This document shows, in pieces, positions 4,596-64,000 of a stretch of 64,000 bases of DNA. The position numbers and the translations under genes are program-made. The notes beneath the pieces are model-generated. The model searched no databases. It saw only the letters and a program-made list of their open reading frames with translations, and was not told the origin of the DNA. Numbering within the stretch: position 1 is the first letter of the stretch; the number at the start of each line of letters is the position of its first letter. This DNA comes from an uncultured Candidatus Saccharibacteria bacterium (lineage in GTDB: Bacteria > Patescibacteriota > Dojkabacteria > SC72): positions 165,584 to 229,583 of the forward strand of contig CAYOME010000001.1 in the NCBI GenBank assembly GCA_964405015.1, given 5' to 3'.

Positions 4596-5780
4596 ATGTC
4601 GAGAAAAATACTCAAAAGAAGAACACAAAACAGTGATAGAAAATCTCCAGATAAAGGGATTCTTGTATTCCTGTTAATAATGGCAATCTTTGGAGCTATA
4701 ATGATATACGACGCTAGTGTATATCAAGCAAATCAAATATTTAAAGACCAATTTTACTTCCTTAAATCTCAACTAATATGGCTCGTATTAGGAAGCATTC
4801 CAGCATTCATCTTTTACATAATTGATTACAGGAAATTACTCAAACTAGCTTTACCAGCATTAATAGTTACAATCGTACTATTAATTCTTGTATTAATATT
4901 CGGAGACGCTATTAATGGCTCCAAAAGATGGTTTCAGATAGGGCCACTACCACCAATACAACCAGCTGAATTTGCAAAGATAGTAATTGTCATGTACCTA
5001 GCTAGTTGGTTAGCTAAAAAGGATTACAAATATACAAAATTTGAAGAAGCTCTTAAAAAAGGATTCCTTAGTAACCTACTAGGATTTCTTGCAATACTTG
5101 GTACAGTTGCGATATTAGTACTCCTAGAACCAGATTTGGGAACTACAATGATAATTTGTGTTACTGCGTTTGGAATGTTCTTTGTTTCAGGTAAAGACAA
5201 AGCACATACAGTAGGATCCCTTGGGGTATTACTTCTTTTCGTTCCAATAGCGATATTAGCCGCAATACTTGAACCATATAGGTTAAAGAGGGTTCAAACA
5301 TTTCTTAACTTAATGCTAACAGGTGAAGTAGCAGATCCAAGAGGAACAGGATATCAAATGCAACAAATATTGATAGGTATAGGATCTGGTGGATTCTGGG
5401 GTAAAGGGTTTGGTCAATCAAGACAAAGATTTGGATATTTAGTAGAAAACACAGCCTTTACCGATTCAATCTTTGCGGTGGTATTAGAAGAACTAGGACT
5501 CTGGGGAGGAGCGATAATTGTATTTTCATGGATATTCTTCCTCTGGAGAGGTTTTAAAATCGCTATGAATGCAATAGACAAAGAAGGACAATTACTTGCA
5601 ACAGGTATTACAATATGGCTAACATGCCAAGCTTTCTTTAATATGGCTGCTAATGTAGGATTAATACCACTAACAGGAATACCACTACCATTCCTAACAT
5701 ATGGTGGATCTAGTACAATAGTGACATTGATAGCCTTTGGACTTCTTTTAAATGTCAGTAGATATGCAAAAAATACATAA
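4596..5780 (+). CDS. ftsW: SEDS-family peptidoglycan polymerase FtsW/RodA
   Basis: 394-aa multi-pass membrane protein with the conserved FtsW/RodA C-terminal block PLTGIPLPFLTYGGSSTIV. It sits immediately upstream of murG. Confidence 0.85.
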   Translation: MSRKILKRRTQNSDRKSPDKGILVFLLIMAIFGAIMIYDASVYQANQIFKDQFYFLKSQLIWLVLGSIPAFIFYIIDYRKLLKLALPALIVTIVLLILVLIFGDAINGSKRWFQIGPLPPIQPAEFAKIVIVMYLASWLAKKDYKYTKFEEALKKGFLSNLLGFLAILGTVAILVLLEPDLGTTMIICVTAFGMFFVSGKDKAHTVGSLGVLLLFVPIAILAAILEPYRLKRVQTFLNLMLTGEVADPRGTGYQMQQILIGIGSGGFWGKGFGQSRQRFGYLVENTAFTDSIFAVVLEELGLWGGAIIVFSWIFFLWRGFKIAMNAIDKEGQLLATGITIWLTCQAFFNMAANVGLIPLTGIPLPFLTYGGSSTIVTLIAFGLLLNVSRYAKNT

Positions 5781-6960
5781 CAAGAAAATATTAATAACTG
5801 GTGGTGGAAGTGGAGGACACCTTTCTAGTGCCAATGCATTAATAGATTCGCTTCTTAATGATTACATGTTTTCTCCTGAAAACATAATATACGTTGGAGG
5901 TGATTTAGGAATGGAAGGAGAGAAACCTGGAAATTCTCTTGAGCAAAAACAAATGATAAACAAACCGTACAAGGTATATTTCATAAGGGCAGGTAAATTA
6001 CAAAGAAGAATATCCTTTAATTCAATCCGATTGCTACTTAGAACAATATTAGGTTTTGTAGATAGTTCAAAGATATTTTTGAAAGAGAAACCCGACCTTG
6101 TCATATCAACAGGAGGTTTTGTATCCGTACCAGTATGTATATTAAGTTGGATACACAAAACCCCAATATTCCTACATGAACAAACTGCATCAGTAGGGCT
6201 TGCAAACAAAATAGTTGGTAAAATATCTAAAAAAATATATGTTTCTTTCAAAGACTCTCTTAAATATTTTCCACCATCGAAAGTACTGCATGTGGGAAAC
6301 AATATTAGAAAAACAATATTTATGAAAGAAGTTACAGGAGATACAAACAAGGATATTGTTGAAATCTTCAAACAATCAAAAGAGTATCCTGTCATATATC
6401 TCTCTGGAGGTAGTCTAGGATCACATACACTTAATCAAAAGGTTCTCTCATCATTAGGTGATATCGTGAAAGAATATTGCGTAATACTTCAAACAGGTGA
6501 TAATCAACAAACAAATGATTTTGAATATGCCGTTGGGAAGAAATTTGAATTAGAAAAAGATCTTGCTAAAAGATTCCTACCTGTTAAATATGTAGATCAA
6601 GAAAGTATAGGATATGTCCTTAACAATATGCATTTGTTCATTGGTAGATCAGGAGCAAATACGGTATATGAGATAGGGGTGTTAAAAAAACATGCCCTCT
6701 TTGTCCCAATCCCCTGGGTTACTCATAATGAACAATATTTAAATGCTAAAGTTTTAGAAAATGTTGGTACAGCTAAAATACTGGAAGAGAAGTACTTAGA
6801 GAGTACAAATATGCTTGAAGAAATTAAAAGATTTGAAGAGCAAATTAAATTAAGAGATATCGATTACAAGAAATTGGACGAGCTCTTTCCAATGAATGCT
6901 ACATCTAAAATGTTAGATGATATCTTTAAAAATGAAGATAGAGGAGAACAAAAGTCTTAA
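5752..6960 (+). CDS. murG: UDP-N-acetylglucosamine--N-acetylmuramyl-(pentapeptide)-pyrophosphoryl-undecaprenol GlcNAc transferase MurG
   Basis: The N-terminal glycine loop ILITGGGSGGH and a GT28-like two-domain length are present. The gene position follows ftsW. The start may be the downstream Met at 5764. Confidence 0.85.
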   Translation: MSVDMQKIHNKKILITGGGSGGHLSSANALIDSLLNDYMFSPENIIYVGGDLGMEGEKPGNSLEQKQMINKPYKVYFIRAGKLQRRISFNSIRLLLRTILGFVDSSKIFLKEKPDLVISTGGFVSVPVCILSWIHKTPIFLHEQTASVGLANKIVGKISKKIYVSFKDSLKYFPPSKVLHVGNNIRKTIFMKEVTGDTNKDIVEIFKQSKEYPVIYLSGGSLGSHTLNQKVLSSLGDIVKEYCVILQTGDNQQTNDFEYAVGKKFELEKDLAKRFLPVKYVDQESIGYVLNNMHLFIGRSGANTVYEIGVLKKHALFVPIPWVTHNEQYLNAKVLENVGTAKILEEKYLESTNMLEEIKRFEEQIKLRDIDYKKLDELFPMNATSKMLDDIFKNEDRGEQKS

Positions 6961-7519
6961 AGAGTATAATCAATTTGGCATTGATGTAAAGGCAAAATAC
7001 TTTGTAACAATATCCAATATTGAACAACTTAAGGATGTACTTACTTCAGAATATTCGAAAGGGAATGTCTTAATTTTGGGAGAAGGTAACAATATTCTCT
7101 TTACAAAAGATTTCGAGGGCCTAGTAATTCAACCAAATATTAAAGGGAAAAAGATCATAGAGGAAAATAATGAAAATATCTTTGTAGAAGTGTCATGTGG
7201 AGAGAATTGGGATGATTTCGTTAAATGGGCAGTAGAGAACCACTACCAAGGAATTGAAAACCTCATCTTAATTCCAAGCAGTATTGGTGGAGCTGTATCT
7301 CAAAATATTGCGGCATATGGTCAAAACATAATGGATGTTGTTACAAAGGTATATGCTACTGAAATAGCTACTGGAAAAGAAAAGATCTTCGAATATGAAG
7401 AATGTGAGTTTAGATACAGAGAAAGCATCATTAAAGATGCGGACAGTATTAAGAGAGCACATCCTCATTTTGTAGAAAATCTACAAAAGCTTGGTGCAAA
7501 TATAGAGTGGGTTGATTAA
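6917..7519 (+). CDS. murB: MurB-like UDP-N-acetylenolpyruvoylglucosamine reductase, FAD-binding domain only (C-terminal substrate domain absent)
   Basis: The region VLILGEGNNILF ... GIENLILIPSSIGGAVSQNIAAYGQ ... CEFRYRESI matches the N-terminal FAD-binding half of MurB. The ORF stops after about 200 aa, where the substrate-binding domain would begin, and only about 200 bp of non-coding DNA follow. Confidence 0.6.
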   Translation: MISLKMKIEENKSLKEYNQFGIDVKAKYFVTISNIEQLKDVLTSEYSKGNVLILGEGNNILFTKDFEGLVIQPNIKGKKIIEENNENIFVEVSCGENWDDFVKWAVENHYQGIENLILIPSSIGGAVSQNIAAYGQNIMDVVTKVYATEIATGKEKIFEYEECEFRYRESIIKDADSIKRAHPHFVENLQKLGANIEWVD

Positions 7520-7532
7520 ACTACACAGGAAT

Positions 7533-7566
7533 GTATAAGTAGCTTATATAAGCCTTCTTTTTTGTT
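7533..7566 (+). terminator. Possible intrinsic terminator after murB'
   Basis: AT-rich palindromes TATAAGtagCTTATA and GCTTATATAAGC are followed by CTTCTTTTTTG. The stems are weak, so confidence is low. Confidence 0.3.
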
Positions 7567-7727
7567 TGTACATATATTCCCCCTATCAGGTATAAACACT
7601 TTTTTGTGAACACTGAATAAATATCTCCATAGATAAATGATTTTACTTAATAAGAAATACCTTGTAGTATTTCTCTCTTGACCACATTCGTACCAAATGA
7701 TACATTAATGGCAGGAAGTGGTAAAAA

Positions 7728-8192
7728 GTGGTGAAAGATGATATACATATAAATATGATAATTGGAGAATACAGAAGCAAAATAGGAGAAAAGAAAAGAG
7801 TTTCACTTCCAAAGAAATTTAGAGATGAACTAGGAGAAGAAATAATATTAACAAGAGGATATGAGGATTCATTGATAATTGTTAATAAGCAGATGTGGAG
7901 CAAAATAGCAGGGGAAGTAGTTAATGGCTCTTTTATAAACAAAAATATTCGTGATACAAGTAGATTCCTAGTAGGAGGAGCAACAGAAATCTCCATAGAT
8001 AAACAGGGTAGATTTTTAATACCAGAAGCACTCTTTGAACATGCCAATCTAAAACAAGATGTCGTATTCATAGGGTTAGTAAATTGGATAGAGGTATGGG
8101 ATAAAGAGAAATGGGATGAAAGATTACAATACCTTAAATCTAATGGAGAAGAGATTGCTAACGAATTAAGTAAGATGGAAGAGAAGAAATAA
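7728..8192 (+). CDS. mraZ: Division/cell-wall cluster transcriptional regulator MraZ
   Basis: 154 aa with two MraZ half-domains (KKRVSLPKKFRDEL and DKQGRFLIPEALFE). Its stop overlaps the rsmH start by 1 nt. Confidence 0.85.
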   Translation: MVKDDIHINMIIGEYRSKIGEKKRVSLPKKFRDELGEEIILTRGYEDSLIIVNKQMWSKIAGEVVNGSFINKNIRDTSRFLVGGATEISIDKQGRFLIPEALFEHANLKQDVVFIGLVNWIEVWDKEKWDERLQYLKSNGEEIANELSKMEEKK

Positions 8193-9079
8193 TGGAGAAA
8201 ATACACGTACCAGTACTACTAAAAGAAACAATAGACTCATTAAATATATCACCAAGTGGATTTTACATAGACTGTACCCTTGGAGATGGAGGACATAGCT
8301 TTGAAATATACTCCAGACTTAATAGCGACGGACTACTACTTAGTATTGATCAAGATCAACATGCAATTGATTTTGTAAATGAATACTACAAGGGAAAGAT
8401 TGGAGAAAATTGGAAGATCGAAAGAAGTAATTTCTCAAAAATATCCCAAGTAGCTAATAAATATGAAAGAAAAGCAGATGGAATCTTAATGGATTTAGGT
8501 CTTTCATCGAGACAACTAGAAGAATCGTACAACAGGGGCTTTAGCTATTTAGAAGATGACGAACCACTAGATATGAGAATGGATGAAAATCTTGGTGTTA
8601 AGGCTAAGGACTTGCTAATTGTATTACCAGAGAAAGAATTAACAAGACTTTTCTTAACCTATGGAGAGGAAAGATTTGCAAGAAAAATAGCAGTTGAGAT
8701 TAAGAAAAATATTACGAATATAAACACGGTTGGAGATCTTACAAGACTTGTCTATAGAGTTGTGCCGGCAGCTCATCAAAGTTCTAAGAACCCATCCCGC
8801 AGGGTCTTTCAGGCCCTGCGGATTGCGGTAAACGATGAACTTAATAGCCTAAAGGATGGTCTAGACAATTCCTTTGAGATCTTAAACACAAATGGTCGGA
8901 TATCAGTGATAACCTTCCATTCATTAGAAGATCGAATTGTTAAAGAATACTTTAACAATATTGTAGATAGCGGAAGAGGGATTCTTCTTTACGAAAATAT
9001 AATAGCCCCAACCGACATAGAGATAGAGGAGAATCCTAGATCCGCATCTGCAAAATTAAGAACAGTAATTAAAAAATAA
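8192..9079 (+). CDS. rsmH: 16S rRNA (cytosine1402-N4)-methyltransferase RsmH (MraW)
   Basis: HVPVLLKETIDSL, DCTLGDGGHS and MDLGLSS motifs are present. The gene has the canonical position after mraZ. Confidence 0.9.
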   Translation: MEKIHVPVLLKETIDSLNISPSGFYIDCTLGDGGHSFEIYSRLNSDGLLLSIDQDQHAIDFVNEYYKGKIGENWKIERSNFSKISQVANKYERKADGILMDLGLSSRQLEESYNRGFSYLEDDEPLDMRMDENLGVKAKDLLIVLPEKELTRLFLTYGEERFARKIAVEIKKNITNINTVGDLTRLVYRVVPAAHQSSKNPSRRVFQALRIAVNDELNSLKDGLDNSFEILNTNGRISVITFHSLEDRIVKEYFNNIVDSGRGILLYENIIAPTDIEIEENPRSASAKLRTVIKK

Positions 9080-9097
9080 TATATACTAACTGCCCAA

Positions 9098-9406
9098 ATG
9101 AATAGCACTAGAAAAACAAATATTACAACTAAGATATTCATTCTAACCCTTTTACTTTTTGGTATTTCCCAATTAGTAATGAATTCAGTTTTAACCCCAC
9201 TAGGTGTTAAATTACAATCCCTAAACACAGAGAAAGAGCACCTACTTGAAGAGAATAGAGGGATATCAGAAGAGATAGCAAAAAACAGCTCCATTAGAGT
9301 AATTGAAAACCTCTCAGAGAAGAAATTAGATATTACTCAGGACAAACAACAAACAGTAGTATATATTGAAGACACTACACTTGTTGCTAATAGAAATAAT
9401 GAGTAA
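9098..9406 (+). CDS. ftsL: FtsL-like small bitopic cell-division protein
   Basis: 102 aa with a single N-terminal TM helix followed by a coiled-coil-like region. It lies between rsmH and ftsI, so the call is from position and topology. Confidence 0.55.
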   Translation: MNSTRKTNITTKIFILTLLLFGISQLVMNSVLTPLGVKLQSLNTEKEHLLEENRGISEEIAKNSSIRVIENLSEKKLDITQDKQQTVVYIEDTTLVANRNNE

Positions 9407-11246
9407 GCTTACAAATCTACACTCAAAAAACAAAACAAAGGGGAAAAAAGATTCACTTTTTTCCAATATTCAAAAAAACAATTACAACCTAGTAATATTC
9501 CTGATCACTTTCCTTGGATTAGTAATAATAGTTCAAGCATTTAGATGGCAAGTTCTTGAATCTGAAAGATTCCAATTAATGGCCAAACAACAATATCAAG
9601 ATAGTAATAAACACACAGCAGAAAGAGGAATCATAAGAGCAAGTGATGGAACAGTACTCGCTGTAGATCAACCCATATGGAATATATATGCGACACTAAG
9701 CCAAGACAGTAAGGAAAGAGAGCTCTTCTTTAATAATAAAGACAAATTCATAGCTACGGTATCTTCAATACTAGCTGTAGAAAACAATACAATATCCGAT
9801 AAGATTACGGATGATTTTGTATATGCGGTATTAGCTAAAGGAGTAGATAATGAAAAAAAAGTTGCACTAGAGAGAGAGAATATCTTCGGAGATGAAAAAA
9901 CAAATAGAAGTGGATTCGGTTTGTATTTTGAAAAAGATGTAAAAAGAATATATCCTAATGCTCAACTAGCATCACATATAGTAGGGTTCATGGGCAAAGA
10001 TGCTCAAGGAAAAGATTTAGGACAATACGGTATAGAAGGTTTCTACTTCGGAGATATTACAGGAAGAGAAGGATATACATATGAAGAAAAGGATTCAAGT
10101 GGTAATACAATTTTAACCGCAGAGTATGAACCAGTATTACCAAGATCAGGGAAGGATATTAAGCTAACAATACAGCCAAGTATCCAAAACAAAGTAGAGA
10201 AATATCTTAAAGATGGAGTGGAGCGAACAGGTGCAAAAAGTGGAACCGTGATAATCATGGAACCTAAAACTGGAAAGATCCTAGCTATGGCTAACTTTCC
10301 AACCTTCAATCCAAATGAATATTGGAGAACATCAGATCCATGGATATTTAAAAATCTTGCAGTATCAGATGTCTATGAATACGGATCAGTTCAAAAGCCA
10401 ATTACTGTTGCACTAGCACTTGAGTCTAAAGCCGTAGATGAAGAATATACTTGTAATGACGCAACAGGATATTTAGATCTATTCACTGCAACAGGATATG
10501 AAGATCTAAAAGGGAGAAAGATTAGTACATGGGACTTAAGACCGGATGGTGTTCAAAATCTAGCAGAGATGCTTAAGAACTCGAACAATCCATGCATAGC
10601 CCAAACAGCCTTGAAAATAAATTCTGCATATTACTACTCAAAACTAAAAGAATTTGGAATAGGGGAATTCATTGGAATAGGATTACAAGAAGAGGCAACA
10701 AGCTACTTAAAACCATTCTCACTCTGGACAAGATTAGATATCATAACAGCATCATACGGACAAGGTATATCAGCAACTCCACTTCAAATTACATCAGCAA
10801 TAAGTACATTAGCAAATCATGGAACAAGAATGAGACCATACATTATCTCCGAAATCTCAGATGAGAAAGAGGTCATAGAATTTGAGCCCCAAGTTCTTTC
10901 AGAACCAATATCAAAAGATATTGCTGATAAAGTAGCAGAGATGATGTCACATGTGATAGAAGATGGAGGTATCAATGAAAGAGAAATAGAATTACTAAAA
11001 GAATATTACATAGCTGGTAAAACAGGTACAGCACAAGTAGCAAAAAAAGATGGACCCGGATATGAAGAGAAGAAAACAATTACTACCTTTGTAGGTTTTG
11101 CTCCAGCAGATGATGCCAAAATGCTTATGCTTGTAAGATTAGAAGAACCTAAAACAAGCCAATATGCTTCCCCAACCGTTGTACCTCTTTGGACAGATAT
11201 TTTCCTAGGTATAGTGAATGATCTGGAAATCCCAAAGAGAAATTGA
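9366..11246 (+). CDS. ftsI: Class B penicillin-binding protein (FtsI/PBP2-type transpeptidase)
   Basis: N-terminal TM helix, a PBP dimerisation region, and transpeptidase motifs (the GTVIIMEPKTGKILAMANFPTFNPN region, and KTGTAQ). An alternative start lies at 9399. Confidence 0.85.
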   Translation: MKTLHLLLIEIMSKLTNLHSKNKTKGKKDSLFSNIQKNNYNLVIFLITFLGLVIIVQAFRWQVLESERFQLMAKQQYQDSNKHTAERGIIRASDGTVLAVDQPIWNIYATLSQDSKERELFFNNKDKFIATVSSILAVENNTISDKITDDFVYAVLAKGVDNEKKVALERENIFGDEKTNRSGFGLYFEKDVKRIYPNAQLASHIVGFMGKDAQGKDLGQYGIEGFYFGDITGREGYTYEEKDSSGNTILTAEYEPVLPRSGKDIKLTIQPSIQNKVEKYLKDGVERTGAKSGTVIIMEPKTGKILAMANFPTFNPNEYWRTSDPWIFKNLAVSDVYEYGSVQKPITVALALESKAVDEEYTCNDATGYLDLFTATGYEDLKGRKISTWDLRPDGVQNLAEMLKNSNNPCIAQTALKINSAYYYSKLKEFGIGEFIGIGLQEEATSYLKPFSLWTRLDIITASYGQGISATPLQITSAISTLANHGTRMRPYIISEISDEKEVIEFEPQVLSEPISKDIADKVAEMMSHVIEDGGINEREIELLKEYYIAGKTGTAQVAKKDGPGYEEKKTITTFVGFAPADDAKMLMLVRLEEPKTSQYASPTVVPLWTDIFLGIVNDLEIPKRN

Positions 11247-11279
11247 GATAATAACTAAATAATTTATACAAAATTACAC

Positions 11280-12308
11280 ATGTTAGAGATACTTAAAGAA
11301 AGTTTAAACTACCTTTTAATATCCACTGTAGCTTCAATAGTATTTGCTCCAATAATGATCGGAATCTTGTATAAATTTAATCAAGTAAGTGGTCTTAAGA
11401 AAACAAAATTAGGTTCTACAGAAGGTACAAATTCAACATTCATGAAGATAATGGATAGTACTAAAACAAACGGTACTCCAAACATGGGAGGCATATTAAT
11501 TTGGATAGTAGTACCACTTGTTACATATATATTTGTACCTCTTACTCCAGTATTAAAAGTTTTACTACTTGGATTCCTACTTTTTGGTTTTTGGGGATTT
11601 GTAGATGTTGCGATATTTACAAATGGATTTAAGAACAATCCTAAGATGAAAGCATTGCAAGAAACTTTTGAATGGAGAATGGGAAAGTTAACAATCGCTA
11701 TACTTCTCAATCTCGGAGTTATGTTTCTTCTTAACAAGACAGGACTCTTTACTGAGATATCTCTTTTAAATATGTTAACAATCTCCGTATCTCCAGCAAT
11801 ATTGATATTAGCCTCAATAGTAGGGCAGTTTGCAATATATTCTGGAGAATTAACGGATGGATTGGATGGACTTATGGTTGGTATCTTCACAATTATTACA
11901 GCCTCAATGGCAGTATTACTCTTAGTTCAAGGTCAATATGAATTCTTACCATTTTTAGCAATACTACTCGGAGTACAAGTAGTCGATCTTTACTTCAATA
12001 TTCCACCAGCAAGATTCTGGAATGGTGGACCAGGAGCAATGCCCATCGCTTTTTCAATATTCTTCATAGGGTTAGTCACCAACAATCTACCTGCATATTT
12101 CTTAATGACCGCTATGACATGGATCATCATGGGATCAAGTGCAATACAAATACTTAGTTTGAAATTCTTCAAGAGAAGAGTCTTTAAGATAGCGCCACTA
12201 CACCATCACTTCCAAGCAGTAGGATGGCCACAGTACAAAGTAACAATGAGGTTCTGGCTCTTTACACTCTTCCTTTGTATCTTAGGAATATATGTTGGAT
12301 TAATCTAA
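11280..12308 (+). CDS. mraY: Phospho-N-acetylmuramoyl-pentapeptide transferase MraY
   Basis: Polytopic membrane protein with NTPNMGGILIW, DGLDGL and FSIFFIGL blocks. Its position after ftsI fits the dcw order. Confidence 0.85.
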   Translation: MLEILKESLNYLLISTVASIVFAPIMIGILYKFNQVSGLKKTKLGSTEGTNSTFMKIMDSTKTNGTPNMGGILIWIVVPLVTYIFVPLTPVLKVLLLGFLLFGFWGFVDVAIFTNGFKNNPKMKALQETFEWRMGKLTIAILLNLGVMFLLNKTGLFTEISLLNMLTISVSPAILILASIVGQFAIYSGELTDGLDGLMVGIFTIITASMAVLLLVQGQYEFLPFLAILLGVQVVDLYFNIPPARFWNGGPGAMPIAFSIFFIGLVTNNLPAYFLMTAMTWIIMGSSAIQILSLKFFKRRVFKIAPLHHHFQAVGWPQYKVTMRFWLFTLFLCILGIYVGLI

Positions 12309-44129: not shown

Positions 44130-45239
44130 TTATACCAATTCCCTTACACTAGATCTATTTAATACTTTCCTTTTAGATATCAAGTACGAAGCAAAGAAAG
44201 AAGTTATCGGAACAATTAGTAAAATACCAATACTTGCAGACAATGTTCTAACGATCTCTTCAGCTATTACATCAGCCCTAAGAATATTCCCAATGCCTCC
44301 ACTGTTGTATGTAAGAAGCATAACTAGGGCAAAACTGGAACCAGCATATGCAATAAAAAGGGTATTAACCATTGAAGAAAGATGGTCCTTACCAATATTC
44401 ATACCCTGTTTGTAAAGTTGAAACATATTCAATTTAGGGTTAGCAATATTCAATTCATATATGGAGGATACCTGACTCATTACAACATCGTCTAATACAC
44501 CAACTGCACCTATTAATATACTTACAAAAAATACTTCAGCTAAATTAATACTTCCACCTGTTTGACTAAGAAGTAAAAATGCTTCTTCACTCCCCGATCC
44601 ATCTACCCTCATAAAGGTTGTAAAAAGTTTAGCTAGAAAACCTACTATTAATATCCCTATGAATGTTGAAAGTACTGCTATACTACTTTTAATATTAAAT
44701 CCGTGAGAGGTGTACATAATGACAATAAGGGAAATACATACCGTAGTAATACCAATTAAAAGTATATTCCCTCCATCTAATATTCTAGGTATTGCCCAAC
44801 CATACAGAAGTAGGACAGTGAATCCCAAACTAATTAAAGATCCTAGCCCTTGTCTTTTACCAATAGCTATAGCTACAACAGAAAATATCAATATCATTAC
44901 CAACACCGAACCCTCTCTTACAAAGCCCGTTATACTCCAACTCTCATAGTCAAAACCATCAGTAAGAAAAGATACATACACCTTATCTCCAACCTTAAAC
45001 TTTGATTCTCCGTTATCAGAGAGAGCAGGTATAGTCCTCACACTTTCACCCCTTTTCTCAACATATATTTCATATTCAAAACAAGTATATCCACCATCTA
45101 AAGATTCGGAACAAGGCACTTCGAAAATCTCTAATACCGTACCTTTAAAAGATTCTTCTGAATCCTGTGCAAAGGAAGGAGTAGGGAATAGTAATGTAAG
45201 AAGTAATAGTAATATGAATTTCATTCCCACATTATACAA
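44130..45239 (-). CDS. YibE/F-like polytopic membrane protein with an N-terminal secreted beta domain
   Basis: Signal peptide, an extracytoplasmic domain of about 90 aa, then about 7 TM helices. The family assignment is tentative. Confidence 0.4.
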   Translation of the reverse strand: MYNVGMKFILLLLLTLLFPTPSFAQDSEESFKGTVLEIFEVPCSESLDGGYTCFEYEIYVEKRGESVRTIPALSDNGESKFKVGDKVYVSFLTDGFDYESWSITGFVREGSVLVMILIFSVVAIAIGKRQGLGSLISLGFTVLLLYGWAIPRILDGGNILLIGITTVCISLIVIMYTSHGFNIKSSIAVLSTFIGILIVGFLAKLFTTFMRVDGSGSEEAFLLLSQTGGSINLAEVFFVSILIGAVGVLDDVVMSQVSSIYELNIANPKLNMFQLYKQGMNIGKDHLSSMVNTLFIAYAGSSFALVMLLTYNSGGIGNILRADVIAEEIVRTLSASIGILLIVPITSFFASYLISKRKVLNRSSVRELV

Positions 45240-45266
45240 AAAAAAGAGGGGCTTGCACCCCTCTTA
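45233..45266 (-). terminator. Rho-independent terminator (minus strand) after the sortase-substrate gene
   Basis: On the plus strand an A-run precedes the hairpin AGAGGGGcttgcaCCCCTCT, so on the minus strand the hairpin is followed by T8. Confidence 0.65.
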
Positions 45267-45286: not shown

Positions 45287-46219
45287 TTACTTTCTCTTAC
45301 TGTAATACAAATATACAGAACTAGATCCAAATGCTAGTACTGCAATTAATGCAAATACCATCATTAAGTTGTTACCAAACAATGCATCTAATTCACCCGC
45401 CGCTTGAGGTAAATTACCATCAACTACAGCATCTCCATTTACATCACCAGTAGGTGAGTAGTCTACACGAATCTTCTCATCCAATGTAACTTCATTACCT
45501 GCTAAATCTTTAACAGACATTGTGAATACATTACGACCTTCTTCTAATTCAATATTCTCTAATCTAAACACACCTTTATCATCTGCAACAACGTCATAGC
45601 TTAAGATACCTCTTTTAACAGTAACTGTACTATTTGGTTCAACAGTACCAGCAACTACAAAAGTGTCCTTGTTTGTCTCTTCTCCATATTTAATAGATAC
45701 GGAATCCTGTGAAGGAGCACTTCTATCTACCTTTGCCAGTTCAATACTACTTCTTGGACCAATTACTCTATTAGGAAAACCCTTAACTCCAGCAACAGAT
45801 ACTGAGTAATCGCCTTCATTCTCTGCGGTATATTCATATGAGAATGTACCCTCTCCACTAACCTTAGTACTCGCTATCTTTACATCATTTACATATACAA
45901 AGATATCGTCATATCCCAAAGCTTTACCTCTAACTAATATTGTTTCTCCATTAGTAATATCTGTAACATCAGTAAGCTCAGGAGCTTCTAAATCTAAATC
46001 TACCGAAGGCTCTTCTCTAAATCTAATGAAAGAGTAGATACCAAATGCAACTAGCAATACACCCAAACCGATGAAGACAGAACCAACCAAACGAGATATT
46101 TTCTCTTGATTGTTTCTCTCTGGTTGCTTTATCTCAACCTTACTTTGCATGTTATCTTGTTGTATTTCTACAACCTTATTATTATTTTGGGCAGAGTTAT
46201 TATTTTTCTTCTTAGCCAC
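45287..46219 (-). CDS. Surface protein with a C-terminal sortase-type sorting signal (LPQAAG-like motif, hydrophobic helix, KRK tail) and a dockerin-like Ca-binding repeat
   Basis: A long N-terminal signal/anchor is followed by beta-rich domains. The C-terminus reads DVNGDAVVDGNLPQAAGELDALFGNNLMMVFALIAVLAFGSSSVYLYYSKRK. The gene lies divergent from the sortase. Confidence 0.55.
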   Translation of the reverse strand: MAKKKNNNSAQNNNKVVEIQQDNMQSKVEIKQPERNNQEKISRLVGSVFIGLGVLLVAFGIYSFIRFREEPSVDLDLEAPELTDVTDITNGETILVRGKALGYDDIFVYVNDVKIASTKVSGEGTFSYEYTAENEGDYSVSVAGVKGFPNRVIGPRSSIELAKVDRSAPSQDSVSIKYGEETNKDTFVVAGTVEPNSTVTVKRGILSYDVVADDKGVFRLENIELEEGRNVFTMSVKDLAGNEVTLDEKIRVDYSPTGDVNGDAVVDGNLPQAAGELDALFGNNLMMVFALIAVLAFGSSSVYLYYSKRK

Positions 46220-46301
46220 TCTAACCTATATTAAAATTTATATACTCTATACAAATAGAATAGAATAAAATTTTACAGAGTGCAAGAAAAATATATAATA
46301 A

Positions 46302-47006
46302 ATGGATATGAGAAAGAAAACGATATTAAAATTCACATTAACAATACTCCTTTTAACAGGCTTTCTAATACCAGTTGGAATATTTGTAATATATCCAAAT
46401 TACAACAAACTAATTGGACCTATAAAGAGATTTAATATACAAAGAAGTACAGAAGAAATAACTTTTCAAATATTAACAACCCTTTCTCCTACTAGAGACC
46501 AAGTACTTGGAATAACTGATATAACATCAACAAACAAGACAATAGAGGAAAGTTTGGGCAGTAATTTTGTAATTCAAGAAAAGCAATTAGAGAGTTTAAA
46601 TACTCAAATTCAAATTGAATCCATTGAAGTAAAAGGAAAAGTGCATGAAGGTGTAGATTCCAATACTATGGACTTAGGTTTTTGGCACTTTCCTCTCTCC
46701 CAATATCCAGGAACTAAAGGAAATAGTGTAATCATTGGACATAGATATGCCAAATTGCCACCTGATCCAGACACTTTCTTTAATCTAGACAAAGTAAAAG
46801 TAGGGGATAGGATACTTGTAGAACAAGATAATAATTCATATACCTACATAGTTACAGAAACTAAGATTGTTGAAAAGAATGACATCTCTATCCTTCAAAA
46901 CTTTGGAGACTACCGTATTACCCTAGTTACATGTACACCTCTTTGGACTGATCATCAAAGATTGGTAATAGTTGGTAAACTGGACAAATTGTATAAAAAC
47001 ACATAG
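46302..47006 (+). CDS. Sortase-family transpeptidase
   Basis: N-terminal TM anchor, VIIGHRYA (catalytic His), ITLVTCTP (TLxTC catalytic Cys) and a downstream conserved Arg (HQRLVIVG). Confidence 0.8.
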   Translation: MDMRKKTILKFTLTILLLTGFLIPVGIFVIYPNYNKLIGPIKRFNIQRSTEEITFQILTTLSPTRDQVLGITDITSTNKTIEESLGSNFVIQEKQLESLNTQIQIESIEVKGKVHEGVDSNTMDLGFWHFPLSQYPGTKGNSVIIGHRYAKLPPDPDTFFNLDKVKVGDRILVEQDNNSYTYIVTETKIVEKNDISILQNFGDYRITLVTCTPLWTDHQRLVIVGKLDKLYKNT

Positions 47007-56982: not shown

Positions 56983-57007
56983 AAATGTATAAGTATCCAT
57001 ACCTATT

Positions 57008-60000
57008 AATGAAAAAACTGCCTAGAATACAGATAAAAAATATTAACAGACGAATCTTAGTAACAATAACTGCCATAATATTGTTAGTACCTTTGTTAAT
57101 TGTTTCACTACCATATATCAAGGTCTGGCAAGCGAGAGCTGCTGCAACAATATATTGGGATGGTGGTGGTGATGGAACATCATGGTCAAATGCACTAAAC
57201 TGGAATACCGATGTAGTACCAAGCCCAACAGATGAAGTCTTGATAGATACGGCAAGTACAGTCAATATTACGGATCCAATAACAGTAACCTCTCTTACTT
57301 TAGGAAAATCTGATGGAAGTGCAGCTACTGTATTACAATTTTCATACGATGCCGTAACACTTGGAGCATTAACTATTACTGGTAGCGAATTTAGATTAAA
57401 TCCAGGAGCAATCGTTAGACATGTAGATTACAATGGAGTTAACCCTGCAAAAGTAAATATTGATGTTCAAACAGGAAATGCCTTAATTCTTGGTTCTATA
57501 AATGTTGATGCGAGAGGGTACAGAGCGGGTGATGGACCAGGACAAGGAACTGATGGTGGTGATGGTGGTGGAGGTGCTGCGTACGGAGGTAATGGTGGAA
57601 GAGCACAGCAAGGATATGCAGGAGGTACTGGGTATGGGGTATATACACTCCCTACCGAATTTGGTAGCGGTGGTGGAAATAGATCTGGATATGCAAGCAC
57701 TGGAGGTCATGGAGGTGGAGTCGTTAAGCTAAGCGTTGGTGGTACTTTAACTGTAACGGGAACTATAACTGCAGATGGAAATGTAGGAGCAAACTCTGGT
57801 GATCGAAAACCCGGAGGTGGGAGTGGTGGTTCAATATTAATTACTACTGGGACCATAACTGGTAATGGAATTGTAAAAGCAAACGGAGCACAGGGTGGAG
57901 ACTCCAACTATGATGGAGGTAGTGGTGGAGGAGGAAGAATTGCAATATATTACACTACTAATACATCTTCATTCTCTACTTTAGCAGCTGCGGGTGGAAA
58001 TTCAACCTTAGCGGGTTCTGCACAATATGGTGGGGCAGGTACAATATATATGAAAACACCTTCTCAGACTAATGGTGATTTAATAGTTAGCAACAATGCT
58101 TCAGGATGGTCTACCAACCTTTCTGCAGAAGTACCATATACTCCACTTCCAAGCGCTTTAACACTTGATAATCTAACAATATCGAAATTCGCCAATGTAA
58201 ATTATACTGATACCCTCACCGTAGGAACTACTTCAGAGGTTTCATATTACGCATATCTTAATCTAACAGGTACTGCAACACTTAATACTTTCAATATTAA
58301 TAATAGTGGTCATTTTTTCTCCCAAGTTACAGCAACAACTACATACAATACCATTAACTGGACAGGGGGAATCATAACAGATAACGGAGGAACGTTTGCA
58401 CTTGTTAGTGGTGGAGCTGCTCTAAGTATTCCAACAGGATCAATATTAAATGGAAATGTTCAAAGAACATTCACCAATGTCACTGTTGATGGTACTCTTT
58501 CTCATACAGAGAATGGAGCGACACCAACAAACAAACTAGACTATATTATTAGTGGAAATCTTACTGTTAATCTATCTGGAAGAATTAATGTAAACGAAAA
58601 AGGATATGCCCCAAGCCAAGGTCCTGGACAAGGAGTTGATCAAGAGGGTGCTGGTGGTGGTGCATACGGAGGAAATGGTGGAAATGGTGCAAACGGAGTA
58701 GGTGGTACTGCGTACGGAAGTTTAACAATACCCACTGACCTTGGAAGCGGTGGTGGATTAAGAAGTGGTAGTGGAGTTTACGGTGGAGGAGCAGTAAAAC
58801 TTACAGTAACAGGTACGACAACAATAAATGGAGATATTACTTCAAATGGTGGATATGGAGACGATGGTTCAGATAGAGATCCAGGAGGTGGTAGTGGTGG
58901 CTCTATCTTAATATATACTGGCACATTAACAGGTACTGGAAATATCAACGCAAATGGTGGTAATACAAAAGATACAAACTACGATGGCGGTGGTGGTGGT
59001 GGTGGAAGAATTGCTTTGTACTTCACTAACGATACTTCCACATTCGCTTCCTTAACCGCTGATGGAGGAAGACCTGGAGCTGGAGGTAGGTATGGTGGAG
59101 CTGGTACTATTTACCTTAAAGACAACGACGATACATACGGTGATTTGATAATAGATAATAATGAACCATCTTGGTACACACAATATTACTATGTTGCATT
59201 AACACCCTTACCTTCAAATCTTACACTTAAAAACATGACCATTGCTGACTTCTCTATTATTGAGTCTTCACAGAGTCTTTCTGTAACTGGCGACTTAAAC
59301 ATATCTAAATATTCTCACTTTAAAAATATTGGAACCGCAACTCTTAACAACATAAACATTACAGATAATGGATGGTATTACAATGAATCAGGATCTACTA
59401 CTACATATACAACTATTAACTGGACAGGGGGAATCATAACAGATAATGGTGGAACATTTGCATTACTAAGTGGAGGAAATGATCTTTCTATTCCCACGGG
59501 ATCGACACTAAATGGAAATGTACAAAGAACATTTAACAACGTTACAATAAACGGAACTTTAACTCATACCGAAAATGGAGCTACACCTGTTTACAAACTA
59601 GATTACATAGTAAATGGAGATTTACTTGTAACTTCATCAGGACAAATAAATGTAAATCTCAAGGGATATGCAATGAGTGAAGGACCCGGTGCAGGTGCAG
59701 ACGGTAGTGGTGGAGGTGGTGCAGGATATGGAGGCTATGGAAGTAATGGCGATAACTCAGTTGGGGGTCAAGCATATGGAAGTATTACACAACCAACCGA
59801 TCTTGGTAGTGGAGGTGGATATGGATCAAACTGGGGAGGTAATAGCCGAGGAGGTGGAGCGATCAAACTTTCAGTTGCAGGGACACTTACCGTTAATGGA
59901 TCAATAGTCTCTAATGGTGCAAATGGAAATGATGGCACTGACAGAGTACCAGGGGGAGGAAGTGGTGGCTCAATATGGATTACAACAGGAACACTCTCTG

Positions 60001-63000
60001 GTACTGGTACCTTTACTGCAAATGGTGGAAATGCATCAGATTCTAACTCTGATGGTGGAGGTGGTGCAGGTGGAAGAATTGCTCTGTATTTCACAACAAA
60101 TAATGCAACTCTTGCGACATTAACAGCTGATGGGGGTAGACCATCAACCTCCAAAGCATACGGTGGTGCTGGAACTATATATATTAAAGACAATGATGAG
60201 CCCAATGCAGATTTAATAATTGACAACAATGAAACCTCGTGGAATACAGCCCTAACTTCTATTGCTCCGACCCCAATAAGTACAAACCTTAACTTAAAAA
60301 ATTTAACAATCACTGATTTTGCCCGGGTTGAAACTTCAAATACCATAAATGTTGTAAATGAATTATTCTTAGGTCAGAAAGCATATTTTGTAAATACTGG
60401 TAATGTGTCCACAAACACATTCAATATTTTAGAAGCCTCTACATATCTTAATCAAGCAACATCATCAATAACTTACAACACACTTAATTGGACTGGAGGT
60501 AACGTTACTGATAATGGAGGAAACTTTGCACTTTTAAGTTCAGGCGATAATTTGCTAATACCTATCGGATCGACCCTGTATGGAAATGTCCAAAGAACAT
60601 TTACCGGTCTTACTGTGAATGGAGTTTTAACCCATACAGAAAATGGATCAACACCTCAATATAAACTAGATTACATAGTAAATGGAGATTTACTTGTAAG
60701 TTCAACTGGACAAATAAATGTAGATCTTAAGGGATATGCAATGAGTGAAGGACCCGGTGCGGGTGGAGATAGTGGTGGTGGTGGGGGGGGTGGATACGGA
60801 GGTAATGGTGGAAATGGACAAACTGGAGCTGGTGGTCAAGCATATGGAAGTATGACAGAACCAACCGATCTTGGTAGTGGTGGTGGATATGGTTCAAACT
60901 GGAGAGGTAATAGCCGAGGAGGTGGAGCTGTTAAACTTACAGTTTCTAATTCACTTACGGTAAATGGTTCAATCATTGCCAACGCCGGTGGTGGTGGTGA
61001 TGGTACGGACAGGGTACCAGGAGGTGGAAGTGGTGGATCAATTTGGTTAATAACTGGAACACTTGCGGGTACTGGTACAATTACAGCAAATGGTGGGAAT
61101 GGAGGAAATTGGAACTCTGACGGTGGTGGTGGTGGTGGTGGAAGAATAGCTTTGTATTATAAAGAAAACACTTCAACATTTAGCCTATTTACCGTTAATG
61201 CTGGTACTGGAGGTGGAGCAGCTTTAAATGGTTCTGTAGGAACAATATTCCTTGGAGGCTTCCCAATGAATCCAATAAATATGGCTCAATACAAAATAGA
61301 TGGTGTAACTGGTATCGGGGCAGGTGCAGCTACAAACGAAAACAGTATGAAGATAAAATTCCAAATGATGGACCCTAATAATACAGATACACTAACACCC
61401 GAAGTAGAATTTGTACCTTTAGGAACCGCATTTAGTAATGTAGCAACAAATACAGGAACTCCAGTATCTTACACGGGTGCAGCAGTAAATGGAGAAGTAG
61501 AAGTAACAGGATTAGCAGATGGAAGCTCATACCACTGGCAAGCAAGAATATGTGATGCAACAGCTCTTTGTTCTGATTGGACTAGCTTTGGAAACAATAC
61601 AGAGGCGGAAGCTGATGTAAGAGTAGTAATGAATGCAGATCCAAATTCACCAACAATACCCGAATCCTCTTTCTATATAAACGCACAATATACTAACAAT
61701 CTTCAACCTACATTAGGATTTGTAATTACAGACTCAAATACCGTTGACTCAGTAGGATATCAGATACAAATAGCAACAGATGCTGACTTTAATACGATCA
61801 TTACAGATTACACCTCCGCAATGGCTGCACAAGGCACACAAACCTTTACAGTAGGACAAGCAGCAGGAACAGGAACATATGCTGAAGGAGCTGAATCTCA
61901 AGAACTTACAACTGGTGGATATTACTGGAGAGTCATGGCTATTGATGATAAAGGTGGAACATCAGATTGGACTGTTGCACCAGGTACACCATCATTTAGA
62001 ATAGATCTTTCGAGACCAACAAATGCAACCTCAGTATTTGTTAAAGCATATGCAGGAGCTACAGATCAATATTCAGAAGGAGCTGAAAACGTCTGGTTTA
62101 GAAGAAATGATCTTTACTTTAGTTGGACAGCAGGTACAGATACACAAGGGGTAAAAGGTTACTGTATATATGTTGGAGACAACCCCAATGGAGATCCAGC
62201 AACAGAGAAAGGATTGCTAGGATCATCCCCTATTAGTACTACAGGTACAACATGCCAATTCATTACTGACCAAACAGAAATTGATTTCTCTAATTCCGCT
62301 CTCAGAAGCTATGAATGGTTAACATCGAGTAATACAAAATATTACTTCAAGGTAAAAACTATAGATATCGCAAACAATGTATATGAAGGACCAGATGTAT
62401 CAAACTATGTATCTTTCAATTTTGATAATACAGCTCCACAAAATGTAACAGCAATATCAACACCAAGTATTGTATTCTCAAATATTGCAGATATGTTCTT
62501 TAGCTGGACAACTGGAACTGCAGGAGCCTCTGATGATAATTCACAAGTATTAGGATTCCAATATGCTATTAACACAAGAGATACTTGGTGGGGCAATGCC
62601 ACAGATACCTTCACAGGGGTAACATATTCTCCAATGGATAGGACACAACCTCTATATCTACCAGAGGAAGTACATAGTTCTGTTCAATTAGGACAAAATA
62701 CTGTCTACTTTAGAGTTGTAGACCATGCAGGTAACTACTCTGAATTAAGAACAGCTGTTCTTAACTATGGAGGAGAAGCTCCTAAGTTTGCACAAGGAGA
62801 TGAGATAACTGTAACTCCAGTGGAAAATACCACCAACACATTTGCATTCAGCTGGCCAGCAGCAACAGCATCAGTTGGAAATACAGTAGCTACATACTAC
62901 TACATGATAAATACACCACCACCAGCATCATATTCAACAATTACTTCTAACTCAGCAACATATATAGCTACTACAGAAACATCTCTTGAAGAATTCTTGG

Positions 63001-64000
63001 TACCAGGACTAAGAAAGGGAGCAAATACAATATATATTGCTGTTGTAGACGAAGCAGGAAATTACTCACCAACAAATGCACTCTCAGCAACCTTTAACTT
63101 GAATTCTGAATTGCCAGATTCTCCATTAGATGTTGCAGTTGCAGATATTTCGATAAAAGATGTATCTATTTGGAGAGCAGCAGTTGTATGGAGTGAACCA
63201 GAATATCAAGGTACAGGGACCTTAACATACCATGTATATAGATCAGAAGATGGAGAGACATGGGAAGAAATTGCAACCACAACAGGTCTTACATATGTAG
63301 ACACAGTCCCAGAATCAAAAACATATTACTGGAGAGTAGCTACAACAGACAACTCCGATGAATCTATAGCAAGTCCATCAATATCAAATGGGGTTTCATT
63401 GGTACCAAGAGGAAAATATCTAGTACCACCAGATCTAACATCAGGTCCTGCAAGCTCATCAATATCTACAACTAAGGCAACAATATCCTGGACTACAAGT
63501 AGAATTGCAGATAGCAAGGTAGCATTTGGTTTAGAAAGTAACAATTACTTTGAATCCGAATCCTACAATTCTTCAGAAGTAACAGAGCACAAAATTGTAC
63601 TAAGCAACTTAACACCAGGTACAGAATATTTCTACAAAGCAAAATGGACGGATGAGGATGGTAATACAGGATCAAGTGATGAATTAACATTTACTACAGA
63701 ACCTGCACCTCAAGTGAAAGATGTAAGGATTAGTAATAGAGGAGTAAGTGGAGCAATAATTAACTTTACGACTGTTAAAGCAAGTAGTGTAAAAATATAT
63801 TACGGAACAACTACAAACTTTGGTGGAGTAAAAGAGATAGCTACATCTAAATTAGAAACATCATATGCCTTAGAATTGAATCAACTAGATGATGGTACCA
63901 AATATTACTACAAGATAAATACACTTGATGAAGAAGGAAAAGAGTATGAAGGTACTACTCTTGATTTCACTACATTACCAAGACCAAGAGTCTACAACAT
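57008..64000 (+). CDS. Giant secreted repeat protein (more than 2,330 aa, 3' end outside the window) with Gly-rich beta-helix-like modules and C-terminal Fn3-like domains
   Basis: Translated by hand, the frame is open from the ATG at 57008 to the window end. The N-terminus carries a signal/anchor (MKKLPRIQIKNINRRILVTITAIILLVPLLIV). About 3.5 tandem modules of roughly 355 aa follow (GYRAGDGPGQG...GGGRIAIYYT...GGAGTIY...TINWTGGIITDNGGTFAL...). Then come several Fn3-like units with YYWRV and TEYFYKAKW signatures. The ORF track omits it because there is no stop inside the window. Confidence 0.8.
57500..61260 (+). repeat. About 1.07-kb tandem coding repeats (3.5 copies) inside the giant gene
   Basis: Near-identical DNA blocks recur, for example ttaactggacagggggaatcataacagataa at about 58355 and 59415, with a diverged copy at about 60485. 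The blocks ggatatgcaatgagtgaaggacccggtgc at about 59665 and 60735 also match. Confidence 0.75.

Follow-up and report, generated by a model that had tools for sequence, protein, structure and literature searches.

Which protein is served by a sortase whose neighbouring gene carries what looks like a sorting signal, yet one that lacks the threonine of LPxTG? The question is raised by a 64-kb stretch of DNA (the window; GC content 34%), the proteins of which match metagenome-assembled genomes (MAGs) of Candidatus Dojkabacteria (candidate division WS6; candidate phyla radiation (CPR)/Patescibacteria). Within it, a gene for a sortase of 234 amino acids (aa) (46302..47006, + strand; 393 homologues, alignment A1) is separated by an AT-rich divergent intergenic region of 82 bp (46220..46301) from the gene for a candidate substrate of 310 aa, referred to here as the client (45287..46219, − strand; alignment A2), which has a GTG start and a conserved MAKKK N-terminus. 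A preliminary description of the window had placed both open reading frames (ORFs) at these coordinates and had proposed that the second protein is a substrate of the first. The explanation that best accounts for the evidence assembled below, with a probability of about 0.6, is that the client is a dedicated substrate that the sortase anchors to the cell wall.

The case for a dedicated substrate begins at the C-terminus of the client, which reads ...DVNGDAVVDGN-LPQAAG-ELDALFGNN-LMMVFALIAVLAFGSSSVYLYY-SKRK, the peptide that spans the motif being DGNLPQAAGELD. The putative sorting motif LPQAAG (aa 270-275; 45395..45412, −) is followed by a spacer of 9 residues, a hydrophobic helix of 22 residues (aa 285-306; 45302..45367, −), the basic and presumably cytoplasmic tail SKRK (aa 307-310; 45290..45301, −), and the stop codon (45287-45289, −). 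Homologues of the client number 164, nearly all of ~300-335 aa. When homologues, orthologues from 80 species-level loci and distant representatives were pooled, 214 distinct sequences with a complete C-terminus were obtained, and in every one of them, down to ~30% overall identity, the hexapeptide has the form [L/I]-P-x-[A/S]-[A/S/D]-G; one more form, 'MPVAAG', comes from a truncated fragment in which the first residue is an artefactual start. Neither the Pro nor the Gly ever varies; position 3 is occupied by Q, V, E, I, L or N, and position 4 by Ala (202 sequences) or Ser (12), with positions 4-5 together reading AA (117), AS (72), AD (13) or SA (12); Thr is found at no motif position. The tripartite architecture is likewise retained: the spacer is 3-16 aa long, the tail contains 2-4 Lys/Arg, and the hydrophobic run measures 19-31 aa, with a single sequence as the exception. 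What the preliminary description had recognised in a single gene, a tripartite signal with a motif other than LPxTG, is a property of the whole family.

The setting of the motif is as informative as its composition. In the AlphaFold model of the client the motif lies in a disordered linker (265-277), with a predicted local distance difference test score (pLDDT) below 50, and this linker varies among homologues by insertions of up to ~20 residues just upstream of the motif, a 4-residue indel just downstream, and substitutions. Because the hexapeptide is fixed inside an otherwise drifting linker, the alignment indicates that the hexapeptide itself is under selection. It could still be argued that the C-terminal helix is a plain second membrane anchor, in which case the client would be a two-pass protein with an external immunoglobulin-like (Ig-like) stalk, the hexapeptide would be kept because it acts as a hinge or as a site of interaction, and the sortase would serve clients encoded elsewhere. 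Consistent with such an arrangement, the anchor families Gram_pos_anchor PF00746 and TIGR01167 have no match in the client at E<=0.1 (Pfam, NCBIfam searches), so that of the attributes of an LPXTG anchor the client displays the tripartite architecture and lacks both a match to an anchor hidden Markov model (HMM) and a Thr at P1. The motif nevertheless has the exact grammar of a sortase signal, namely L/I-P, a variable x, small residues plus Gly, a spacer, a transmembrane segment (TM) and a basic tail, and its position in a disordered linker makes a purely structural role hard to see.

Gene linkage bears on the same choice. A scan with the sortase alignment, with one genome per GTDB species, returned 124 relatives, 80 of which were kept, and in all 75 loci that include upstream DNA a client homologue is found directly upstream of the sortase gene on the opposite strand (median client-sortase spacer, 96 bp). 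Adjacency alone is weaker evidence than it appears, because the whole region of ~10 kb, MutS-PPDK-AI-2E-(YibE/F)-client<->sortase-tig (trigger factor)-clpP, is syntenic throughout the Dojkabacteria lineage, whose genomes are reduced; the proximity of the two genes could accordingly be inherited gene order, as a client with a plain second anchor would allow. Some of the weight of the linkage evidence is regained from two distant clients, P0253 and P0266, which are 30-32% identical to the window client and which are each encoded immediately adjacent to, and divergently from, a sortase 39-44% identical to that of the window. In these loci (L084, L085) the flanks differ on both sides, one with LemA and TPM_phosphatase, both with DUF2085, and the other with DUF2238 and unannotated genes, and yet the pair is kept, which is not readily explained if the helix is an ordinary anchor and the sortase acts elsewhere. 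Judged from these comparisons, the sortase-client pair appears to be conserved vertically throughout Candidatus Dojkabacteria. The main variable element of the otherwise rigidly syntenic region (loci L001-L080) is the gene for a YibE/F-family membrane protein (44130..45239, − strand of the window), which lies between the AI-2E transporter and client genes in 29 of the 75 loci.

The distribution of the signal is a third line of evidence. A profile of the signal (A3, 45 positions) was scored against 1.84 billion representative proteins, and each of the 33 matches at E<=0.001 is either a full-length member of this client family (261-369 aa) or a fragment of one, the aligned part lying in every case at the extreme C-terminus; the signal occurs in no other protein architecture among the 33. 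No other ORF in the window combines a C-terminal motif with a TM and a basic tail, and no further signal of this kind was found in ~1.2 Mb of related loci. The signal hence appears unique to this protein family, and the arrangement resembles an enzyme that serves a single client more than it does a pathway for anchoring surface proteins in general.

A giant surface-type protein encoded in the window had been singled out by the preliminary description as a place to look for further LPxAAG-like substrates. Its ORF (56985..64000, +; >2338 aa) consists of Ig/FN3-like modules (Ig_Rha78A_N, Pur_ac_phosph_N, PhoD_N) and runs past the window end, leaving the C-terminus outside; ~40 homologues (P0272-P0312), some of them named Dojkabacteria, Microgenomates or Roizmanbacteria, stood in for it. 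These ~40 proteins share the tail SIDTVTITPKAT[DE]NAL[ND]LVITNLQEAFGFLGGL[KR]K (consensus ...TITPKATxNALxLVITNLQEAFGFLGGLKK), in which there is no sorting motif, TM or basic tail. The giant protein was rejected as a sortase substrate on the strength of this conserved tail, which may instead be an anchoring or secretion signal of the family's own, and the expectation of additional substrates was not borne out in the window, the related loci, the profile search or the giant homologues. The same result tells against a client with two plain anchors, since it leaves the sortase with no alternative substrate in any of the places searched. A more distant homologue of the giant protein encoded outside the window, P0327 (1442 aa), ends in ...LAETG followed by a hydrophobic segment and RK, a tail that reads as a canonical, Thr-containing sorting signal of class E type. 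Because Thr-containing signals exist among related surface proteins, the Thr-less Dojkabacteria motif stands out; by the same token, a signal of this kind among the proteins retrieved, and a scan that covered a small part of any one genome, leave some room for a sortase with clients elsewhere. Taking both sides together, a client held by two ordinary membrane anchors is unlikely.

The enzyme that would act on this signal is a sortase by every general measure. PF04203 matches residues 103-227 (46608..46982, +), the catalytic domain, with 95.7 bits against a cut-off of 26.6, and the generic sortase model TIGR01076 matches with 79.8 bits against 39.35; the HMMs and the His-Cys-Arg triad thus agree in placing the protein in the sortase family (MEROPS C60). 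The three residues had been described as intact, and indeed His147 in VIIGHRYA (codon 46740-46742), Cys211 in LVTCTP (46932-46934) and Arg220 in HQRLV (46959-46961), all on the + strand, are invariant across 18 aligned homologues (56-77% identity) and align with the triad region of PDB sortases, and the enzyme looks catalytically competent. Its N-terminal membrane anchor (~aa 8-31; 46323..46394, +) is predicted from the hydrophobic stretch ILKFTLTILLLTGFLIPVGIFVIY and from an AlphaFold helix at 3-37 (pLDDT 76-92), in a model built from a shallow alignment, with a mean pLDDT of 55. In the alignment of 18, homologues align from Met3 of the window protein (46308), which may be the true start.

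Assignment of the sortase to a class is a different matter. The class cut-offs of NCBIfam are 140-166 bits, and the scores obtained were 79.8 of 160 for class E (NF033747), 71.9 of 160 for class C (NF033745), 71.8 of 140 and 68.9 of 165 for class D (NF058671 and NF033746, both partial matches), 47.6 of 158 for class GN (TIGR03784), and 38.6 bits for class F; no class A model was returned by NCBIfam. For all 18 aligned homologues, classes C, D and E score alike (~1e-23 to 1e-24) and far under their cut-offs, and for this reason the sortase is left unclassified, as a member of what appears from its sequence to be a clade of its own. By sequence comparison with solved structures the best match is the class C enzyme 8t28 (E=1e-15), followed by 5hu4 (E=3e-14), which is labelled 'Cysteine protease' and is presumably a class A enzyme of Listeria, and then by 4d7w/4d70, presumably SrtD of Clostridium perfringens; class A structures for the most part reach no better than E 1e-7 to 1e-4, and SrtE1 stands near the bottom of the list. 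Class by class, the candidates were set aside on several grounds. The housekeeping class A was rejected for its weak matches and because neither the window nor the related loci yielded an LPxTG protein; class C for the HMM shortfall and a substrate with a BIg rather than a CnaA/CnaB fold; class D for HMM scores under the cut-offs and for Ala/Ser where LPxTA needs Thr; and class E for its HMM shortfall, for Pro at motif position 2 in 214/214 sequences, and for the lack of Thr. To judge from these scores and matches, the enzyme is certainly not a typical class A sortase. The preliminary description had named a class A enzyme together with the lack of any other substrate as the combination that would undo its proposal; as the sortase is not of class A, that combination does not arise.

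The architecture of the client constrains what the sortase could do with it. The AlphaFold model (mean pLDDT 79) comprises a disordered segment (1-33), a long helix (35-68), two beta-sandwiches (81-164 and 175-254), the disordered linker (265-277) and a second helix (277-309). The first sandwich, Ig-like domain 1 (45728..45979, −), has a pLDDT of 86-93; the second, Ig-like domain 2 (45458..45697, −), is assigned by Pfam, NCBIfam and Foldseek to the BIg or Ca2+-stabilised adhesin type. Pfam matches of the sandwiches are Big_13, Big_6 and Glucodextran_B, the NCBIfam family Ca_tandemer scores 44.7 bits, under its cut-off of 50, and the best Foldseek matches in the PDB are the Bap C region, the BIg domains of SiiE and the repeats of the MpIBP ice adhesin (E 2e-8 to 2e-5). 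Foldseek matches listed for the client are BIg, FN3 and other Ig-like folds, with no Gram-positive pilin (CnaA/CnaB) among the 50 listed, and the YPK pilin motif is absent from the sequence. The predicted structure accordingly describes two adhesin-type Ig domains forming a short stalk, not a pilin. Of the two roles suggested by the preliminary description, pilin or adhesin, it is the adhesin-type fold that persists. A paralogue of the Ig region of the client, of 329 aa and without a sorting signal, is encoded ~7 kb downstream of the sortase gene in one Dojkabacteria genome (L010 17102..18091, +).

Directly after Ig domain 2 lies a conserved loop, DVNGDAVVD (aa 259-267; 45419..45445, −), a possible Ca2+ site that occurs in one copy per client and follows the family pattern [D/S]-V-[N/D]-G-[D/N/E]-A-V-x-D. 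This loop had been called dockerin-like; its conservation was upheld and the dockerin identity was not, as no dockerin HMM matches at E<=0.1 (Pfam) and the single D-x-N-G-D-x-x-x-D loop contrasts with the two tandem 22-residue segments of a dockerin. Because it is single, matches no dockerin HMM and follows an Ig domain of Ca2+-adhesin type, the more economical reading is that the loop would be an adhesin-type Ca2+ site.

At the other end of the protein, the preliminary description had overlooked a conserved N-terminal cytoplasmic segment and a TM helix of 22 residues that is probably uncleaved. The predicted cytoplasmic segment is Lys-rich (aa 1-43; 46091..46219, −; alignment A2), with M1, A2, K5, M24 and K27 invariant or nearly so. 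MAKKK, for which GTG serves as start codon in the window and in several homologues, leads into a variable stretch rich in Lys; after this comes SMKSKVEIK, where Met24 is invariant and could be an alternative start codon or part of a conserved cytoplasmic motif. The helix itself (aa 44-65; 46025..46090, −) falls within the long AlphaFold helix at 35-68. In 139 homologues, the hydrophobic run has a median length of 22 aa (range 20-29) and is preceded by a median of 41 residues; the charges flanking it follow the positive-inside pattern, and a small-x-small site at the end of the run is absent in 133/139. By this crude test, the helix is probably an uncleaved signal anchor rather than a cleavable signal peptide.

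These features bear directly on the idea that the sortase polymerises the client into a pilus-like or sheet-like polymer, joining the C-terminus of one subunit to a lysine of the next in the style of class C enzymes. The solved structure ranking first is, as noted, of class C, the TLVTCTP signature is class C-like, the sortase gene lies beside that of its substrate as in pilus loci, and Lys249 is the only invariant lysine of the client ectodomain (alignment A2) and so a candidate acceptor. Set against this are the class C HMM score, less than half of its cut-off, and a sequence reading of the sortase in which the part ahead of the catalytic domain (before residue 100) has no DPW, DPF or DPY lid motif and the C-terminus has no TM or hydrophobic segment. 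The client for its part has adhesin BIg folds, no CnaA/CnaB match among those listed and no YPK-type motif, and an N-terminal TM that appears to be uncleaved would block extrusion of a fibre. A Gram-positive pilin was rejected on the fold, the absent pilin motif and the apparently uncleaved N-terminal anchor, and polymerisation of the client is very unlikely.

If, as preferred here, the client is a dedicated substrate destined for the wall, the steps might be as follows. The membrane-anchored sortase would have its catalytic domain facing outward, and the client would be inserted with both termini in the cytoplasm. The enzyme would recognise the [L/I]-P-x-[A/S]-[A/S/D]-G motif, cut inside the hexapeptide with formation of a thioester at Cys211, and then join the client to an amine in peptidoglycan or lipid II. 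The scissile bond is most likely LPQA|AG, after position 4, that is LPx[A/S]|[A/S/D]G, because in this register x stays variable, Ala or Ser takes the place of Thr at P1, and P1' is small as in the class D motif LPxT|A (sortase class motifs are given in PMC8225981). The window also contains a dcw-type cell-wall cluster (4596..12308, +) with genes for an FtsW/RodA family protein, MurG, a MurB-like FAD-binding protein that is short (200 aa), RsmH/MraW, a class B penicillin-binding protein and MraY; with these peptidoglycan and lipid II genes present, a wall acceptor exists.

Were the N-terminal anchor kept, the product would be tethered to the membrane by one end and to the wall by the other, and the mature client would sit at the membrane-wall interface. 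Carried furthest, this would mean that the sortase installs a covalent membrane-to-wall staple, a two-Ig-domain strut, in every Dojkabacterium, with the client retaining its conserved cytoplasmic segment along with the anchor, and that the enzyme is strictly Thr-less and six-position (LPxA|AG), orthogonal to the known classes. Such a staple would resemble Braun's lipoprotein of Escherichia coli, but it would be made by a sortase; in this full form the proposal is tentative and rather unlikely.

The N-terminal anchor can also be turned to a different use. A client already anchored at its N-terminus does not need wall attachment for retention, and sortases hydrolyse their substrates when no nucleophile is present. 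The sortase could thus be mainly a processing protease, or a ligase to a non-wall acceptor such as a protein or glycolipid, with the Ig stalk held by the N-terminal anchor alone or released, and the CPR envelope, which is poorly understood (PMC5220378), gives such a scheme some latitude. The peptidoglycan and lipid II genes of the window speak for a wall acceptor instead, all characterised sortase classes transfer to a wall or pilin amine (PMC8225981), and a dedicated transpeptidase that just clips a helix seems uneconomical in a genome of ~0.7 Mb. A chiefly processing role is, on these grounds, quite improbable.

Attachment of a dedicated client to the wall has its own difficulties, and besides the discounted adjacency and the silence of the anchor families, several points weigh against it. 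The search for clients covered ~10% of one genome and the same neighbourhood in other genomes, and the signal profile would miss substrates with the hexapeptide alone in common. To our knowledge, a sortase client that retains an N-terminal TM anchor is atypical. The motif has six positions rather than five, which makes both the register and the scissile bond uncertain. Finally, the sortase-client function is read from sequence and predicted structure, and cleavage and anchoring are predictions.

How the pair relates to known systems can be considered at the levels of enzyme, motif and cargo. The closest functional analogues would be dedicated sortase-client pairs, namely the 'marine' GN sortase and SrtC-BasI. 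The GN class (TIGR03784) reportedly has a dedicated neighbouring target, which is the same one-sortase, one-target concept as here; its model is far from matched by the Dojkabacteria enzyme, and host, cargo and motif all differ. In the SrtC-BasI/BasH system of Bacillus anthracis (class D, LPNTA), a sortase is likewise encoded beside a dedicated client (PMC3208642), and LPNTA (L-P-x-(P1)-Ala) resembles the Dojkabacteria motif in carrying, just past the scissile position, a small residue where LPxTG has its Gly. One homologue of the sortase has been named 'class D sortase' by NCBI, in keeping with the partial class D matches. LPNTA keeps its Thr, however, whereas the Dojkabacteria motif always has Ala or Ser and then an extra invariant Gly, and SrtC-BasI belongs to one operon in a sporulation context, whereas the Dojkabacteria pair is divergent, without sporulation context, and lineage-wide in a CPR clade.

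Sortase chemistry at a P1 residue other than Thr has precedent, because the LPNAG signal of B. anthracis BasE is SrtA-dependent in vivo (PMC3208642) and the evolved eSrtA(4S-9) uses LPXSG and LPPAG (PMC9126251). BasE, though, is an exception among the clients of SrtA, a housekeeping class A enzyme that otherwise uses LPxTG, and eSrtA(4S-9) is a laboratory product, whereas the Thr-less six-position motif of Dojkabacteria is the only form, fixed in 214 sequences. With class C and E sortases the Dojkabacteria enzyme has a membrane anchor and the His-Cys-Arg triad in common. Class E (LAxTG) provides the best-scoring class model, the cut-off of which is missed by ~80 bits, and the Dojkabacteria motif keeps Pro at position 2; class C (LPxTG) provides the best solved structure and shares TLVTCTP, while its cut-off is likewise missed by ~80 bits and the lid, the C-terminal TM and the pilin-fold substrate are all lacking. 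As for the cargo, SiiE, region II of MpIBP and the Bap C region have a fold like that of the client ectodomains, and the partial Ca_tandemer match and the acidic, D/N-rich loop after the domain extend the likeness. Those proteins are giant, many-repeat, type-1-secreted Gram-negative adhesins (SiiE, MpIBP) or Bap, whereas the client has two domains, two TM helices and a sortase signal.

Several other features of the window accompany the pair. A promoter-like site, TTTACA-16-TATAAT (46272..46299, +; 11/12 matches in a promoter scan), is a lead only, as promoter-like sites show no enrichment over shuffled sequences; it ends 3 nt ahead of the first ATG of the sortase gene, and the leader of the sortase transcript may be very short or absent altogether. 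Beginning 22 nt beyond the client stop codon, a terminator-like GC hairpin with a T-run (45244..45265, −) was returned by a terminator scan; its stem of 9 bp includes 5 GC pairs and is followed by TTTTTT. A protein of 713 aa (691..2832, +), in which a Peptidase_C39_2 domain comes after two Big_5 Ig-like domains, is probably another surface or secreted protein. The records of L001, L004, L005 and others with a Dojkabacteria-type locus are titled 'uncultured Candidatus Saccharibacteria bacterium', and the proteins of those MAGs are 45-77% identical to proteins of Dojkabacteria-titled MAGs; these titles appear to be generic or mistaken.

Over half of CPR/Patescibacteria genomes are reported to encode sortases, and among Microgenomates the enzymes are near-ubiquitous (PMC6744442). 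In the library searched, the literature on sortases in Patescibacteria, CPR, Dojkabacteria and Microgenomates holds generic mentions only, and no paper was found there that names a CPR sortase client or motif. What is new here is a sortase clade, apparently outside the curated classes, whose single client occurs throughout the lineage and carries a six-position motif devoid of Thr; the mechanism would extend known sortase biology. Because the anchor HMMs do not match the signal and client homologues carry generic names ('hypothetical' or 'Ig-like domain-containing' protein), predictions of CPR surface proteomes are likely to be incomplete. The makers of protein-ligation tools have until now turned to directed evolution for orthogonal sortase specificities (PMC9126251); if the enzyme does prefer [L/I]Px[A/S][A/S/D]G, nature would already supply a sortase for a Thr-less motif, and with it a candidate orthogonal ligase. 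For the organisms themselves, the pair offers a concrete, testable enzyme-substrate assignment in a class of uncultivated, probably episymbiotic bacteria, and it points to what may be a universally conserved surface or envelope protein of Dojkabacteria.

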